NCBI GenBank assembly: GCA_035638875.1
Contig: DASQZE010000232.1
Span: 1 to 49,970, forward strand
Length of the DNA stretch: 49,970 nucleotides
Reading direction: 5' to 3'
From: Longimicrobium sp.
GTDB taxonomy: Bacteria > Gemmatimonadota > Gemmatimonadetes > Longimicrobiales > Longimicrobiaceae
The notes beneath the pieces are model-generated. The model was not told the DNA's origin and did no database searches. It saw nothing but the letters and a program-made list of their open reading frames with translations. Below, piece after piece: positions 9,882 to 16,836 of the stretch; the first letter of the stretch is position 1; every line of letters begins with the position of its first letter. The translations under genes were made by a program, and so were the position numbers.

Positions 9882-10081
9882 GGCGATTCGTAAATTCAGG
9901 AATTTCAGTCGTTGCCCAATCGCCAGCAGCGACGCCATGCAATCCCCGTTTTGCTTCTCCGGTGATCCTGCCGACGTGCCTCGCCGCAGCGTTGCTGTCT
10001 TGATGGAAAACAACATCCGTGCCTTTCTCCACCTGCCATCCCGTCAGAATGGAATCCAGGGCGGCGAAGGCACCTGGGAAT

Positions 10082-10110
10082 TTGCATTGCACACAAATGC
10101 GTCCTAATAT
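10082..10110 (+). promoter_or_regulatory. Putative sigma70 promoter for the Cys-rich peptide genes
   Basis: TTGCAT-N17-TAATAT in an AT-rich patch. Confidence 0.5.
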
Positions 10111-10273
10111 GTATTACTTCAATTTCCTGCTCCGTATCGTCCATACATCTATTTTTCAGCGTTTTTTCAGGACGTGAGCGGATGCACACGCAGCCCTTTC
10201 GTGTTCCTGTGCGGCGCGATTGGAACGGACGATGTCGGCGGCGGGGCATGATCCACCCGGACCGGGAGGACGG

Positions 10274-10516
10274 ATGAACAGGATGATGACGGCCGCGCGA
10301 CGGACCGCCTACGCGGCGGGGGTACTGGTCTCGCTGGGATTCGGCGCGCGGGCGGCGCTCGCCTCGCCGCTGCCCATGCAGACGTGCACGGAACCGGCCT
10401 ACTCCGTGGGCAGTTGCACGTCCACGAGCGACTGCCGCAAGATCTGCAACCGCCTGTCCAACGGGCTCATCCCCATCTGCGACACGCGGACGTTCTGCTG
10501 CACCTGCCAGAAGTAG
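10274..10516 (+). CDS. Secreted 8-Cys defensin-like (CS-alpha-beta) peptide 1
   Basis: GGAGGA RBS; signal peptide ending in ALA; mature part C-x9-C-x5-C-x3-C-x10-C-x5-CC-x-C. Confidence 0.85.
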   Translation: MNRMMTAARRTAYAAGVLVSLGFGARAALASPLPMQTCTEPAYSVGSCTSTSDCRKICNRLSNGLIPICDTRTFCCTCQK

Positions 10517-10568
10517 CCGCCGCGCCGGACGAGCTCCGGCGCATCCACGCACAGCACGGGAGTACGCC

Positions 10569-10802
10569 ATGACGAAGATGATGAGGAACCTGCGGTCCAC
10601 GGTGTTCGCCGGGGGCGTCGGCGCGGCGCTCGTGTTCGGCGCCGCGTCGTTGCGGGCCGACGTGAGCCCCACGGCCGCCTGCTCGGAGCCGTTCGCCACC
10701 TCGTGCACCACGACGACGGCGTGCGCCAAGTACTGCCGCGGCGTAGAGGGTGCCGGTACGGGCCAGTGCAGCAGCGGCTGCTGCTACTGCATCTGGTTCT
10801 AA
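10569..10802 (+). CDS. Secreted 8-Cys defensin-like (CS-alpha-beta) peptide 2
   Basis: GGGAG RBS; signal peptide similar to peptide 1; C-x7-C-x5-C-x3-C-x10-C-x3-CC-x-C with a GxC (GQC) motif. Confidence 0.88.
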   Translation: MTKMMRNLRSTVFAGGVGAALVFGAASLRADVSPTAACSEPFATSCTTTTACAKYCRGVEGAGTGQCSSGCCYCIWF

Positions 10803-10827
10803 GCCGGTTTCTCCACGGGATTGAAAG

Positions 10828-10861
10828 CGAGAGGCCCCGCCGGCGACCGGCGGGGCTTCTC
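10828..10861 (+). terminator. Hairpin terminator after the defensin-like pair
   Basis: GCCCCGCCGG-cga-CCGGCGGGGC followed by TTCT. Confidence 0.7.
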
Positions 10862-10881
10862 GTGCGTTCGACGCAAGCCGC

Positions 10882-10910
10882 TTGACGAACGTAGCGGCAC
10901 CAACTACACT
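10882..10910 (+). promoter_or_regulatory. Putative sigma70 promoter
   Basis: TTGACG-N17-TACACT. Confidence 0.55.
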
Positions 10911-11019
10911 CAACTCGTCTACTTTGTCTCCTTGCTGCGTCCGCGCGACGGTCCGCGGCAATTCCCGCCTGCCGGGCACCAGGAGTTCCCGGCAATGCTG
11001 AATGCCGCGCCGTTGCTGA

Positions 11020-11075
11020 ATTATACGGATTATACAGAGACACGTATTGCGCCACTAGCTGAGAGTAAATATCAT
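11020..11075 (+). promoter_or_regulatory. Putative promoter with upstream ATTATAC direct repeat
   Basis: ATTATACGG-ATTATACAG, then TTGCGC-N17-TATCAT, about 50 nt before the ATG at 11126. Confidence 0.45.
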
Positions 11076-11125
11076 TCCGTGGGTATCCACACATTCTCGG
11101 CCATACCTTCTACCGGAATCCCACC

Positions 11126-11305
11126 ATGCGCAACTTTACCGCCACCCTGCTGCTCGCGCTCATGGCTGCCGTGCTGCCTTCCCTCCCCCGGCCTGCCAGC
11201 GCCCAGATCGTGACGTGCTACAAGAAGGTGTGCGCCGAGTATCCCGACGGAACCAAGATCTGCGAGCTGACGCCGGTGGACTGCAGCCAGGTGAAGATGC
11301 TATGA
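11126..11305 (+). CDS. Secreted 4-Cys peptide A, 59 aa (not in ORF track)
   Basis: MRNFTATLLLALMAAVLPSLPRPASA|QIVTCYKKVCAEYPDGTKICELTPVDCSQVKML; its stop overlaps the next ATG (ATGA); paralog at 12862. Confidence 0.85.
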   Translation: MRNFTATLLLALMAAVLPSLPRPASAQIVTCYKKVCAEYPDGTKICELTPVDCSQVKML

Positions 11306-11670
11306 AGCGCACATCCCTGCGCGTCCGTCGCGCCATTCCGAAGGGCGTCCTGCTCCTGGCCGGGTGCGGCCTGATCGCGTGCGGCGAGTTCACCACCACG
11401 GCACCCGTGGCACCCGCCCCGGCATCGCCACCCTCCGTCGCGGATCTGTCCCCGGAGCAGCGGGAGCTGTTCGACCGACCCGTTCCCGCGGAAGCGCTGG
11501 TGGAACGGCCGGCAACGCAGCAGGAGCTGCAGGCCTTCTTCGACCGGTTCCCACCGGGCCACCTGGAGGCGCTGCTGACCGTTGCCAACCGGCGCGCGGC
11601 CGCCCGCGGCGAGGACACCATCCCCCACTGCCTGCCCCGCTGCGGGACGGGCAAGGCACCCGCGCAGTGA
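11302..11670 (+). CDS. Putative lipoprotein, 122 aa
   Basis: ATGA coupling upstream and GTGA coupling downstream; lipobox-like LAGC/LIAC; Pro-rich linker; C-terminal CLPRC. Confidence 0.75.
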   Translation: MKRTSLRVRRAIPKGVLLLAGCGLIACGEFTTTAPVAPAPASPPSVADLSPEQRELFDRPVPAEALVERPATQQELQAFFDRFPPGHLEALLTVANRRAAARGEDTIPHCLPRCGTGKAPAQ

Positions 11671-12830
11671 AGGCATCGCACGTTCTCGCGGGAACGGCCC
11701 GATTCTTCGTCCCCGCGCTACTGGCTTTTTCGACGGCGTGCACGTCCGGGGAAGCACGCGACGCCGCGCCGGGGAGCGACCTTCCCGCCGCGTGGAACGT
11801 CGCCGAAAAGCCCACGCTGCGGATCGGGGCGTCGGAGGCGGACGCCCTGGGGTTTGTCACCAGCGCGGTGAGCCTGCCGGGCGGCGGCGTCGCCCTGGCC
11901 GACGCGGGCTCGAACCGCATCGACGTGTTCGACGCGCGCGGCCAGCGGGTGCGCACCATCGGCCGCGAAGGGCGCGGGCCGGGCGAGTTCACCCATCCGG
12001 AGTGGATCGGCCTGCGCGGGGACACGCTGCGGGTGTGGGATAGGGTCCAGGCCCGCCTCACCCTGTTCGACACCATCGGCCGGGTCATCCGCACCGAGCC
12101 CCCGCTCACGGACCTGGGATCGTTCCCCCGCGCCGCCGGCCAGTTCGCGGACGGGTCGCTCCTCCTGCTGGGCGGCTCCACCAAGTCGTGGCGGACGGGC
12201 CCGTTCCGCGACTCCATGCTCCTGGTCCGCGTGCACCCCGGCGGCCGCCGCGATACGCTGGGCCGTGTGCCGGGGGACGAGCAGATCGGAAGCGTCGAGC
12301 GAAACGGGACCGTCTCGAAGACCGACCAGCTGCCGTTCGGGCGTCATACGCTCGTGGCCGTGCGTGGCGAGCACGTGTTCCTGGGCACGGGCGACTCGTC
12401 CACCATCGTATCTTCCGCCGACGGCAGGGCGTGGGCGCGGGCGGCCGCCGTTCCGGGCCCACGGCGGCGTGTGACGCCGCAGGACATCGACGAACACTGG
12501 GAGCGGCTCCTGGTCCAGGGCTCCGGCTCCGGCTCCGCGGGCAAACGGCCCGAAGGCATCGACTACCCGGAGGAGTATCCGCCGTACGCGGACGTGCAGC
12601 CTGCCCCAGGCGGCGACCTGTGGGTCCTTCTTCCGTCACGCCCCTCCGAGTGGGGGGTGGGCAGCCGGTGGATCGTGTTCGCCCCGGACGGCGCCGTGCG
12701 GGGCACGGTCTACATCCCGGGGCGCACCCGCATCCTGGAGATCGGGGACGGCTGGATCCTCCTCTCCGAGACGGACGCGGATGACCAGCAACTCGTCGCA
12801 CGATATCCGCTGGCCGCACCCTCGTCCTGA
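11667..12830 (+). CDS. 6-bladed beta-propeller (NHL-like) lipoprotein
   Basis: GTG start overlaps the upstream stop; lipobox STAC; VALADAGSNRIDVFDARGQRVRTIGREGRGPGEF blade signature. Confidence 0.85.
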   Translation: MKASHVLAGTARFFVPALLAFSTACTSGEARDAAPGSDLPAAWNVAEKPTLRIGASEADALGFVTSAVSLPGGGVALADAGSNRIDVFDARGQRVRTIGREGRGPGEFTHPEWIGLRGDTLRVWDRVQARLTLFDTIGRVIRTEPPLTDLGSFPRAAGQFADGSLLLLGGSTKSWRTGPFRDSMLLVRVHPGGRRDTLGRVPGDEQIGSVERNGTVSKTDQLPFGRHTLVAVRGEHVFLGTGDSSTIVSSADGRAWARAAAVPGPRRRVTPQDIDEHWERLLVQGSGSGSAGKRPEGIDYPEEYPPYADVQPAPGGDLWVLLPSRPSEWGVGSRWIVFAPDGAVRGTVYIPGRTRILEIGDGWILLSETDADDQQLVARYPLAAPSS

Positions 12831-12861
12831 ATTCGCCCGTCCACTTCAACCTACCCGTTTC

Positions 12862-13041
12862 ATGAAACATGCGAAGAAGGTCGTCATGGCCTGTGCGGCC
12901 GCCATGCTGGGCGCCGCCGCCATCCCCGGACGCCCGCTGCCGCTGGAGGCGCAGATCATCCGCTGCTACGACGTGACGTGTACGAAGGACGAAAAGACCG
13001 GCATCGTTCGGTGCGTGGAGAAGCTGACCCCCTGCCCGTGA
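12862..13041 (+). CDS. Secreted 4-Cys peptide B, 59 aa
   Basis: MKHAKKVVMACAAAMLGAAAIPGRPLPLEA|QIIRCYDVTCTKDEKTGIVRCVEKLTPCP; same QI..CY...C framework as peptide A. Confidence 0.85.
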   Translation: MKHAKKVVMACAAAMLGAAAIPGRPLPLEAQIIRCYDVTCTKDEKTGIVRCVEKLTPCP

Positions 13042-13100
13042 AGCCGGGCACGCGCACTCCGTGACACAGGTGACGACGGCGCAGCATTTCGCAGGATGAA

Positions 13101-13135
13101 AGAAGGCCCCGCCGGGAATCCGGCGGGGCCTTTCT
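13101..13135. terminator. Bidirectional terminator
   Basis: AAGGCCCCGCCGG-gaat-CCGGCGGGGCCTTT between convergent genes. Confidence 0.8.
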
Positions 13136-13155
13136 CGTCTTCGTGGATCCATCCG

Positions 13156-14178
13156 CTACGGCTTTCGCAGCGCCTCCACCGCAACGTCGGGGTTGTCGGA
13201 GAACACGCCGTCCACGCCGGCCTCGATGTACGCGGCGATCTCCGCGCGCAGGTCGCCCGGGCGATGGAGAAACGCGGGATCGGTGATGTCGCCGGACCGG
13301 AAGTCCGCGGAGAGAAAGACGTTCTCGCGGCGAAACGTCCACGGGTGCACCTGCAGCCCCGCCGCGTGCGCGTCCGCCACCAGCGGCGTGGGGGGCAGCA
13401 TCCGCCCCTCCGCGTCGCGCGGGATGACGAGCGCCTTGTTGGGGCCGATGGCGTCCGCGTAGGTGGCGATCTCCGCCAGCCCCGCCGGCGTGGCCATGTC
13501 GGCGTAGCTGCGCGGATCGTTGCGCAGGTCCAGGTCGTACGGCTGGCCCTGTGCCTCCATCAGCTGCACCAGGCGCACCCCCGTCCGGCGCCGCAGCATC
13601 CGCAGGTTTGCCGTCTCGAACGACTGGATGAAGACGGGGTCCGCCGCCTCCGTCCACCCGGCCCGCTCCAGTGCAGCCAGCAGCGGCGGCTCCAGCGCCA
13701 GGCCGATGGACTCGAAGTAGCTGGGATGCTTGGTTTCCGGGTAGATGCCGATGGTCCGCCCCAGCCGCGTCGACTCCTCCTGCGCCAGCACGATCACCTC
13801 GTCCAGCGTGGGGATGCGGAAGCGGTCGTCGTAGTGCGCCGCCTCCGGCCGCACCTCCGGCAGCCGCTCGCGCGCCCACAGCGTCCGCAGCTCCGCCAGG
13901 GTGAAGTCCTCCGTGAACCATCCCGTCACGGGCAGGCCGTCGATCTCCTTGGTGGTGCGGCGGTCGATGAACTCGGGGCGGTCCTTTACGTCCGTCGTGC
14001 CGCCGATCTCGTTCTCGTGCCGCGCGACGAGCACGCCGTCGCGGGTGGCGACCAGGTCGGGCTCGATGAAGTCCGCGCCCATCTCGATTGCCAGCCGGTA
14101 CGATTCGATCGTGTGCTCCGGCCGGTACCCGCTCGCGCCGCGGTGCGCGATCACGATGGGCGATTGTGCGTTCGGCAT
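13156..14178 (-). CDS. glpQ: Glycerophosphodiester phosphodiesterase
   Basis: IAHRGASGYRPEHT, ADFIEPDLV, YPETKHP, IQSFE and DGVFSDNPD motifs; start uncertain (14178 or 14265). Confidence 0.92.
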   Translation of the reverse strand: MPNAQSPIVIAHRGASGYRPEHTIESYRLAIEMGADFIEPDLVATRDGVLVARHENEIGGTTDVKDRPEFIDRRTTKEIDGLPVTGWFTEDFTLAELRTLWARERLPEVRPEAAHYDDRFRIPTLDEVIVLAQEESTRLGRTIGIYPETKHPSYFESIGLALEPPLLAALERAGWTEAADPVFIQSFETANLRMLRRRTGVRLVQLMEAQGQPYDLDLRNDPRSYADMATPAGLAEIATYADAIGPNKALVIPRDAEGRMLPPTPLVADAHAAGLQVHPWTFRRENVFLSADFRSGDITDPAFLHRPGDLRAEIAAYIEAGVDGVFSDNPDVAVEALRKP

Positions 14179-14231
14179 CCCGGGCAGGCTCGGCAGGGGG
14201 AGCAGGGTGATGAGGACGGGCCACCGACGCG

Positions 14232-14678
14232 TCACGAGGCATCGTGCGCGGTCACGAGCGACCATCCGCCCTCAAGCGGCCGAACGCTCGCGCAGACCGG
14301 GCCGCCGTCCTGCATCGCGCCCGGGATCCGGACCTGGAGGGCGGCGCCGGGCGTATCCAGCGCCCGCGCCACGAGCCCGGCGGAGATCCCGGCCAGGCGC
14401 ACCTTCGCCCGCCGGGACCAGCACGAGCCCGGCTGCCCCGCCCTCGTCCCCGAGCTCACGTAGACGAAGCGGTCGTCCGGCCGCCCCTGCGCAAACGGCC
14501 CCAGGAAGTTCGGCGCCCCGTCCGCGCGGCTTCCCGTGCGGACGCTGAGGTCGAAGACGAGCGCATCCGCAGATTCCGCCACCGGCCCCAGCAACTCGCC
14601 CCGTCCGCGCTGGACACGGTACACGACCCCGGCCAGGGGGCGTACGATGACGATGCGCAGCGCGAGCTCACGATCCAT
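14232..14678 (-). CDS. DUF5990-like protein
   Basis: VQRGRGEL, GPFAQGRPDDRFVYV and RRAKVRL resemble this family (recognised from memory, not searched). Confidence 0.7.
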   Translation of the reverse strand: MDRELALRIVIVRPLAGVVYRVQRGRGELLGPVAESADALVFDLSVRTGSRADGAPNFLGPFAQGRPDDRFVYVSSGTRAGQPGSCWSRRAKVRLAGISAGLVARALDTPGAALQVRIPGAMQDGGPVCASVRPLEGGWSLVTAHDAS

Positions 14679-16614: not shown

Positions 16615-16836
16615 TCAGCACTGGCGCAGGCCGCACGTCCCGATGCCGTCCGCGTCGCAGGTGGCTCCGACCGTGGCGCAGTACCAATCGCACGAGTGGT
16701 AGCAGGTGTACCGGGGGTAGGTTTCGGGATAGGGGTCCTGCGCGCCGACCACCGTGCCCGCCGACCCGGCCGCCGCCGAAGTGTCAAACGACACCACGTT
16801 CACATCCTCAAGTGTCAGTCTGAGCTTGGTCCGCAT
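16615..16836 (-). CDS. RiPP precursor, pinensin-like lanthipeptide leader
   Basis: GGAGG RBS; leader KLRLTLEDVNVVSF...GTVVG; core with 6 Cys and repeated T/S-C pairs. Confidence 0.8.
   Translation of the reverse strand: MRTKLRLTLEDVNVVSFDTSAAAGSAGTVVGAQDPYPETYPRYTCYHSCDWYCATVGATCDADGIGTCGLRQC

Follow-up and report, generated by a model that had tools for sequence, protein, structure and literature searches.

What is the role of a compact bacterial gene cassette in which two lipoproteins are bracketed by two small secreted cysteine peptides? We address this question for a contig of Longimicrobium sp. (DASQZE010000232.1, assembly GCA_035638875.1), of which positions 1 to 49,970 were analysed, and this 49,970-nt stretch is referred to as the window below. 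The initial annotation had described two secreted 59-aa paralogs around a small lipoprotein and a beta-propeller lipoprotein and had proposed a peptide-receptor or toxin-immunity system. All four open reading frames are present in the order peptide A, small lipoprotein, propeller and peptide B, and the coordinates, Cys spacings and Ala-Gln sites of the two peptides were confirmed (Table 1).

Table 1. Features of the cassette and its surroundings in the window
Feature	Position	Strand	Remarks
Two secreted 8-Cys defensin-like (CS-alpha-beta-like) genes	10274-10516, 10569-10802	+	Separate unit with its own hairpin
Second hairpin	10827-10863		Between the 8-Cys genes and the cassette
Sigma-70-type promoter-like site	10882..10910	+	TTGACG-N17-TACACT; heads the cassette
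Hairpin peptide A	11126..11305	+	59 aa; C31-x4-C36-x9-C46-x6-C53
Small lipoprotein	11302..11670	+	122 aa; lipobox LIAC, Cys27; Pro-rich linker
Propeller lipoprotein	11667..12830	+	387 aa; GTG start; STAC lipobox, Cys25
Hairpin peptide B	12862..13041	+	59 aa; C-x4-C-x10-C-x6-C
Terminator-like hairpin	13102..13133	+	Cassette end; -36.7 kcal/mol, z -6.37
Short Cys-rich ORF	16615..16836	-	'L.LE.L.V.SF.T' leader

Organization and expression of the cassette

The coupling of the first three genes is as initially annotated, with an ATGA overlap between peptide A and the small lipoprotein (at 11302) and a GTGA overlap between the small lipoprotein and the propeller (at 11667); peptide B follows the propeller stop codon after 31 nt. 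The promoter-like site is the single match in a scan of positions 10000-14500, where 0.2 would be expected, and the same motif is found in loci L004 and L124 and twice in L123. At the other end, the one terminator predicted previously is borne out by a stable hairpin that is faced by a convergent GDPD gene and had been missed by a consensus terminator scan because its T run is short. The cassette is flanked by clpB on one side and this GDPD gene on the other, and the GC3 of its four genes is 0.86-0.89. Rfam searches of positions 10000-13300 returned two sub-threshold matches, both on the terminator, and nothing else. The terminator and the second hairpin upstream of the cassette have a common GGCCCCGCCGG arm. 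This arm is found again in related loci and could act as a recombination substrate.

Two RNA libraries contain contigs of relatives. A 2041-nt contig from soil RNA run X7 (204 differences) covers positions 11120-13056 with just 64 and 39 letters beyond them, and contigs from biocrust RNA run X5 tile positions 11190-13101, though such contigs give neither strand nor level and may stem from carried-over DNA. In both libraries the contigs of relatives stop within about 10 nt of the terminator hairpin, and the 8-Cys genes lie on contigs separate from the cassette. The flanking genes likewise have contigs in X5 and X7, so that no silent stretch is established. That contigs from two studies end at the terminator is a weak hint at a single four-gene transcript.

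The hairpin peptides form a new family

Peptide A has a predicted Sec signal (residues 1-26) that would leave a mature peptide of 33 aa starting at Gln27 with net charge 0, and for peptide B a predicted signal of residues 1-30 would leave 29 aa from Gln31 with net charge +1; in both, the predicted cleavage site is Ala-Gln. The two are distant paralogs (BLASTP E 2e-5, 9/22 identical) covered by one profile. An AlphaFold2 model of peptide A predicts a signal helix followed by a beta-hairpin with strands at residues 31-38 and 44-51 (pLDDT 92-93), and the strand register of this model suggests a C1-C4/C2-C3 disulfide ladder. The two-disulfide beta-hairpin proposed initially thus agrees with a predicted hairpin and four invariant cysteines, with the disulfides themselves read from the model.

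Ala-Gln and all four cysteines are invariant across a 37-row alignment of the peptides. A peptide A homolog at 88% identity carries the source label Longimicrobium sp. The family profile finds 92 proteins among 1.84 billion representatives at 50% identity, 90 of which have the motif C-x4-C-x(3-10)-C-x6-C, and 80 of these 90 also have Ala-Gln. Their net charge is at most 0 in 76/90 and never exceeds +2. Pfam and NCBIfam searches with a 97-row alignment gave no meaningful match (best E 0.007-0.01, one member each), a PDB sequence search gave nothing at E<=1, and Foldseek with the peptide model gave nothing at E<=0.001; in the ESM Atlas, the best scores for peptide A and the small lipoprotein (0.80-0.81) are at chance level. 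Judged by the Pfam, NCBIfam and PDB searches, the peptides are a new family. Pooled over six close ortholog pairs (only two for mature B), dN/dS is 0.25 for both mature A and mature B, 0.44 for the signal of A, 0.34 for the small lipoprotein and 0.23 for the propeller. These values show that the small ORFs are selected as proteins and that the mature peptides are under purifying rather than diversifying selection.

Six-Cys ladder variants of the hairpin are found at loci L026, L059, L051 and L115; the three that are linked to a propeller have their own propeller clade and lack the small lipoprotein. In further families of Gemmatimonadota, ten weak profile matches (E 5e-5 to 6e-4) were rejected as mostly a different protein of 89-91 aa, and one of them is a Cys peptide pair ahead of a distant propeller. 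This conserved Cys-rich exported protein of 89-91 aa is unrelated to the hairpins and occurs in other Gemmatimonadota families (L094, L096-L101 and L103).

Plausible peptide maturation by housekeeping enzymes

The Gln that follows the predicted cleavage site had been noted in both peptides and is indeed there, but it does not hold as a signature of the cassette: genome-wide, Gln follows the first AxA in 59/231 crudely predicted signal peptidase I (SPI) substrates compared to 3.3% elsewhere. We therefore rejected Gln+1 as a cassette-specific signal. The genome encodes a glutaminyl cyclase of the Glu_cyclase_2 type (contig C471, E 4.9e-96), three DsbA-type proteins and one VKOR, with two of the DsbA matches flanking VKOR on contig C390; all of these genes lie on contigs other than that of the cassette. 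It seems plausible from these gene contents that the peptides acquire pyroglutamate and disulfides through housekeeping rather than cassette-specific enzymes. The excess of Gln+1 resembles the Q-rule described for Bacteroidetes (PMC5837995), and two of its features are found here, a Gln that SPI cleavage would place at +1 and a genomic glutaminyl cyclase; the parts of that paper available to us do not mention Gemmatimonadetes. As stated in the initial annotation, no RiPP-type modifying enzyme is found among the four genes or the scanned flanks.

The propeller has variable loops and no conserved His or Asn

The AlphaFold2 model of the propeller lipoprotein (pLDDT 90.5, pTM 0.87) predicts a six-bladed NHL/DUF4221/DUF5128-like fold with Z scores of 19-21.5 to NHL and DUF4221 structures. 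The closest match is the NHL domain of Brat (Z 21.5, rmsd 3.3, 262 aligned); Bacteroides proteins BVU_1028 (DUF4221, PDB 3s9j; Z 19.1, rmsd 4.4, 305 aligned) and BF0058 (PDB 4raa; Z 16.9, rmsd 4.1, 279 aligned) are similar as well. DUF5128 (PF17170) scores 22.5 bits against a cut-off of 22.9, at residues 79-138 only, and is found at E<=0.001 in 40/87 homologs (SGL in 1/87). The likeness to small-peptide plus propeller loci of Bacteroidota that had been suggested for this locus therefore stands for the fold, since BVU_1028 and BF0058 are six-bladed lipoprotein-type propellers with insertions, but their identity to the window propeller is 12-13%, and the cassette additionally has a small lipoprotein and hairpin peptides at both ends. 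For the peptides the likeness fails: 0/97 match NVEALA (PF14055) at E<=0.01, the family that we take to form the small-protein neighbourhoods beside Bacteroides six-bladed propellers.

Two insertions stand out in the model, a beta-arm at about residues 206-221 and a helical insert at about 265-300. Among 24 hairpin-linked propellers, identity falls from 37-50% in the blades to 30% in the helical insert and 17% in a loop at residues 171-179 together with the beta-arm. By standard propeller topology, these variable loops would be b-c and d-a connectors on the usual ligand face. The top fold matches, eukaryotic NHL proteins (Brat, Mei-P26 and TRIM71) and PAL, have a GxGPGEF-type stretch in common with the propeller, which differs from them in being an extracytoplasmic lipoprotein without a conserved His for PAL-type catalysis. 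PAL-type NHL enzymes have conserved His metal ligands, and SMP-30/lactonase propellers have a central Glu/Asn/Asp metal site. No His or Asn column is conserved in 60% of 87 propeller rows, a check of the SMP-30-type metal site found no conserved Asn in these rows, and the invariant residues are W43, G92 and P105, which favours a binder over an enzyme. Complex prediction for the propeller (residues 36-387) and mature peptide A (27-59), with alignments for each, gave no answer, with scores of 0.87, 0.02 and 0.02 in three runs relative to a mark of 0.32; it is evidence neither for nor against binding. On contig C132 (2925-4348), a propeller gene is matched in two overlapping frames and is apparently frameshifted.

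Peptides and propellers are co-inherited as a cassette

A genome-wide scan for the Cys motif yields three ORFs, which are peptides A and B and one on contig C469 that is followed by a small lipoprotein and a propeller with 32% identity to that of the window. The same genome thus holds a divergent three-gene copy of the cassette, and this layout is not a product of chance, because the third motif ORF also precedes a lipoprotein and a propeller. A secreted Cys peptide lies within 1.3 kb upstream of 8/20 propeller ORF matches in this genome (some truncated or duplicated), compared to 0/76 other lipoprotein genes and 14/3000 random sites. Propeller matches are found in 33 of the 71 family genomes, with 91 distinct sequences of which 89 were long enough for a tree (a quick IQ-TREE search). 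We labelled 24 of them as hairpin-linked, 15 as linked to another Cys peptide, 41 as without any and 9 as at a contig edge. The hairpin-linked label changes 6 times on the tree versus 21.2 times when shuffled, and 21 of these rows share one branch of 24 (SH-aLRT 92), where L008, first labelled otherwise, was later found to be the 22nd. All 8 loci of the branch with the window propeller (SH-aLRT 96) have both peptides in the full layout of A, lipoprotein, propeller and B.

The peptide profile has 40 matches in 17/71 family genomes, up to 6 per genome, though 33 of the 40 are rows of the alignment itself and hence circular. Of the remaining 7, 2 are linked to a propeller, 2 precede a lipoprotein at the end of the contig, 2 are in L112, and 1 stands alone (L115). 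A pattern scan of metagenomes added 6 loci: a propeller is present at 4 of them, and at the other 2 a lipoprotein precedes the contig end. The proteins of L124 are the same as those of L004, so that it does not count as independent. The survey of small ORFs beside homologous propellers proposed at the outset thus uncovers a conserved, co-inherited peptide-lipoprotein-propeller cassette but not a general rule: 40/80 propellers with enough upstream DNA have no peptide, and about half lack one even under a looser filter. None of the best 28 loci outside the genus has a small Cys peptide upstream, and many have another propeller there. Cassettes occupy several unrelated neighbourhoods with a patchy, multi-copy distribution. 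Peptide and propeller similarities are correlated (Mantel rho 0.54, 0/2000 permutations), a co-divergence that physical linkage alone would yield. A scan of 26 flank and lipoprotein sequences revealed neither a recognisable sensor nor a regulator. More widely in Gemmatimonadota, this type of six-bladed lipoprotein is strongly expanded, with matches in 66/121 class genomes and many genomes with at least 10 copies. Immediately upstream of more distant propellers on contigs C35, C39, C383, C436, C486, C508 and C373, there are secreted Cys peptides of other classes (with 2, 4, 5, 6 or 8 Cys), so that the pairing extends past the hairpin family.

Rearranged loci separate the modules

The small lipoprotein is hypervariable, has no family assignment, and adjoins the peptide in 22/26 hairpin loci, being absent from the other 4. 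Several loci have lost parts of the cassette. In L123, a promoter, peptide A', a lipoprotein X, a propeller and peptide B' come first. Another copy of the promoter then precedes what is left of A, an ortholog of the window lipoprotein that is intact, a leftover of the beginning of the propeller, and the terminator. In L004/L124, which are not independent, a relative of lipoprotein X stands behind the promoter and its peptide is absent. Conversely, the propeller is deleted in L112, where peptide A and the lipoprotein remain and the first propeller codons continue into peptide B, and in L115 a six-Cys hairpin stands by itself; the propeller is thus not obligatory in cis. Orphan retention is typical of immunity genes, and the orphan lipoproteins in two rearranged loci are suggestive in this direction, though only that. 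The small lipoprotein is a candidate immunity or adaptor protein. For the propeller as cognate immunity partner, the initial proposal has the co-inheritance with the peptides in its favour, but on orphan retention the small lipoprotein is as good a candidate.

A candidate toxin-immunity module and its alternatives

Our leading reading, held tentatively and at somewhat less than even confidence, is that the cassette is a polymorphic peptide toxin-immunity module, and we favour it ahead of an envelope complex, a signalling system, a stress peptide and an enzyme-substrate pair, in this order. One predicted transcript would yield two Sec-exported two-disulfide hairpins and two lipoproteins that capture them at the producer envelope and thereby protect the producer. 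Signal peptidase I would expose the Gln for capping as pyroglutamate by the housekeeping glutaminyl cyclase, and housekeeping DsbA/VKOR would close C1-C4 and C2-C3. In related cells, the neutral hairpin may then act on one particular protein, for instance through pairing of beta-strands, and not through charge-driven membrane lysis. The variable propeller face and the small lipoprotein would bind the cognate hairpin, and protection from the peptides of neighbours would fall to orphan lipoproteins and to propellers without a peptide. This reading draws on the co-inheritance of the cassette, its patchy multi-copy spread at unrelated sites, orphan retention, the defensin-like neighbours, the variable propeller loops, the lack of a conserved His, the lack of a recognised regulator and the precedent of TolB, a six-bladed propeller with colicin A's TolB box bound as a hairpin in its central canyon (PMC2821528). 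TolB itself is a housekeeping protein that a toxin has hijacked, whereas here propeller and peptide are co-encoded and co-diversifying. Against toxin-immunity speak the non-cationic peptides, the purifying selection on them, the missing propeller at L112 and L115, the 4/26 hairpin loci without small lipoprotein and the lack of a dedicated exporter, which would leave a Sec product in the periplasm unless it is released by a further route.

Several of these same points would be expected if the hairpins were permanent subunits of an envelope-tethered complex, pairing with the propeller beta-arm and the small lipoprotein in a variable surface or periplasmic module for binding or adhesion: the peptides are neutral and conserved, Sec export comes without an outer-membrane exporter, ATGA/GTGA coupling suggests stoichiometric synthesis, and a variable beta-arm protrudes from the propeller model. 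We nonetheless consider this unlikely, given that the parts persist apart (orphan lipoproteins in L123 and L124, propeller-less peptides in L112 and L115) and that a peptide is missing from half of the homologous propellers. Less likely again are strain-specific kin or quorum signals, with released hairpins as ligands of a propeller receptor that feeds a transducer encoded elsewhere. The diversity of Cys-peptide classes, each ahead of its own propeller clade, and variable loops on a binding-type NHL fold would fit such a role, as would a putative sigma-54-type regulator ORF ahead of one propeller pair on C373, but a lipoprotein by itself has no output in the cytoplasm, and neither a kinase nor an anti-sigma factor or regulator could be recognised next to the hairpin cassettes examined. 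Bufferin-like peptides are the model for an improbable alternative in which the peptides buffer metals or stress in the periplasm and the lipoproteins are loosely linked passengers; small size, Sec export and Cys content agree with it, yet the spacing of the cysteines suits a disulfide ladder across the strands, the propeller linkage is tight and no DUF692-type enzyme was recognised nearby. Least probable is a PAL- or lactonase-like propeller that matures the peptides as a periplasmic tailoring enzyme, i.e., a RiPP system: the weak similarity to PAL (E 8.7e-6, fold Z 16.3) and the fold likeness to SMP-30-type lactonases are outweighed by best fold matches to non-catalytic NHL domains and by the pattern of invariant residues described above.

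Known peptide systems resemble the cassette only in part. Tachyplesin, protegrin and gomesin are two-disulfide beta-hairpin antimicrobial peptides with which our peptides would share a hairpin with a four-Cys ladder and possibly an N-terminal pyroglutamate, but the hairpins described here are bacterial, near neutral and never strongly positively charged. Actifensin and class IId bacteriocins (PMC6989792) are likewise unmodified disulfide-rich peptides from multi-copy diversified loci, and the 8-Cys genes next to our cassette are defensin-like. Actifensin has a GA-type leader and ABC transporters (PMC6989792), whereas the peptides of the cassette have Sec signals with a predicted Ala-Gln cleavage site and fold as predicted hairpins, lipoproteins are their putative partners, and a transporter gene is absent. 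Class IId loci are expected to have a co-transcribed cognate immunity gene and orphans of it elsewhere; here, coupled lipoproteins, orphan lipoproteins and orphan propellers are candidates for this role. Whether the propeller acts as receptor or immunity protein is judged here from gene context. Going beyond toxin-immunity, it is conceivable, if doubtful, that the cassettes form a polymorphic code of peptide warfare or kin recognition in which each neutral hairpin comes with its own propeller reader and small lipoprotein, and orphan Gemmatimonadota propellers are a library of readers for the peptides of other strains. If true, this would assign a function to large uncharacterised DUF5128/DUF4221-like propeller families and make neutral hairpin peptides available as a new scaffold from nature.

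To our knowledge, no role has been described for the Bacteroides structural relatives of the propeller. Literature searches at the level of listings and the openings of abstracts, outside subscription journals and supplements, found no paper on the cassette or the peptide family, and the available parts of PMC10352776 and PMC6989792 do not cover the cassette. Its compact size, with synthesizable peptides of 29-33 residues and a soluble propeller, makes the role of the propeller directly testable, and a soil phylum that has hardly been mined would contribute a family of natural disulfide hairpins that are neutral and may act as target-specific antimicrobials or signals.

Other Cys-rich peptide genes nearby

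Of the two 8-Cys genes upstream of the cassette, only the second has weak Pfam matches, both below cut-off (Toxin_2, E 0.0094; Gamma-thionin, E 0.029). The site between clpB and the GDPD gene carries 2-6 secreted defensin-like genes (mostly 8 Cys) that vary between species in the window, L031, L003, L112, L123 and L124, with the longest array, six genes, in L031; these neighbours are not independent, because all are at one insertion site. The window genome has further lone defensin-like copies on contigs C38, C65, C449, C482 and C575. The window copy of another type of short Cys-rich ORF with an 'L.LE.L.V.SF.T' leader (Table 1) has no recognised modifying enzyme beside it. Such ORFs, which resemble lanthipeptide-type precursors, are also present in L086 (3097-3300 and 3506-3745) and L028.
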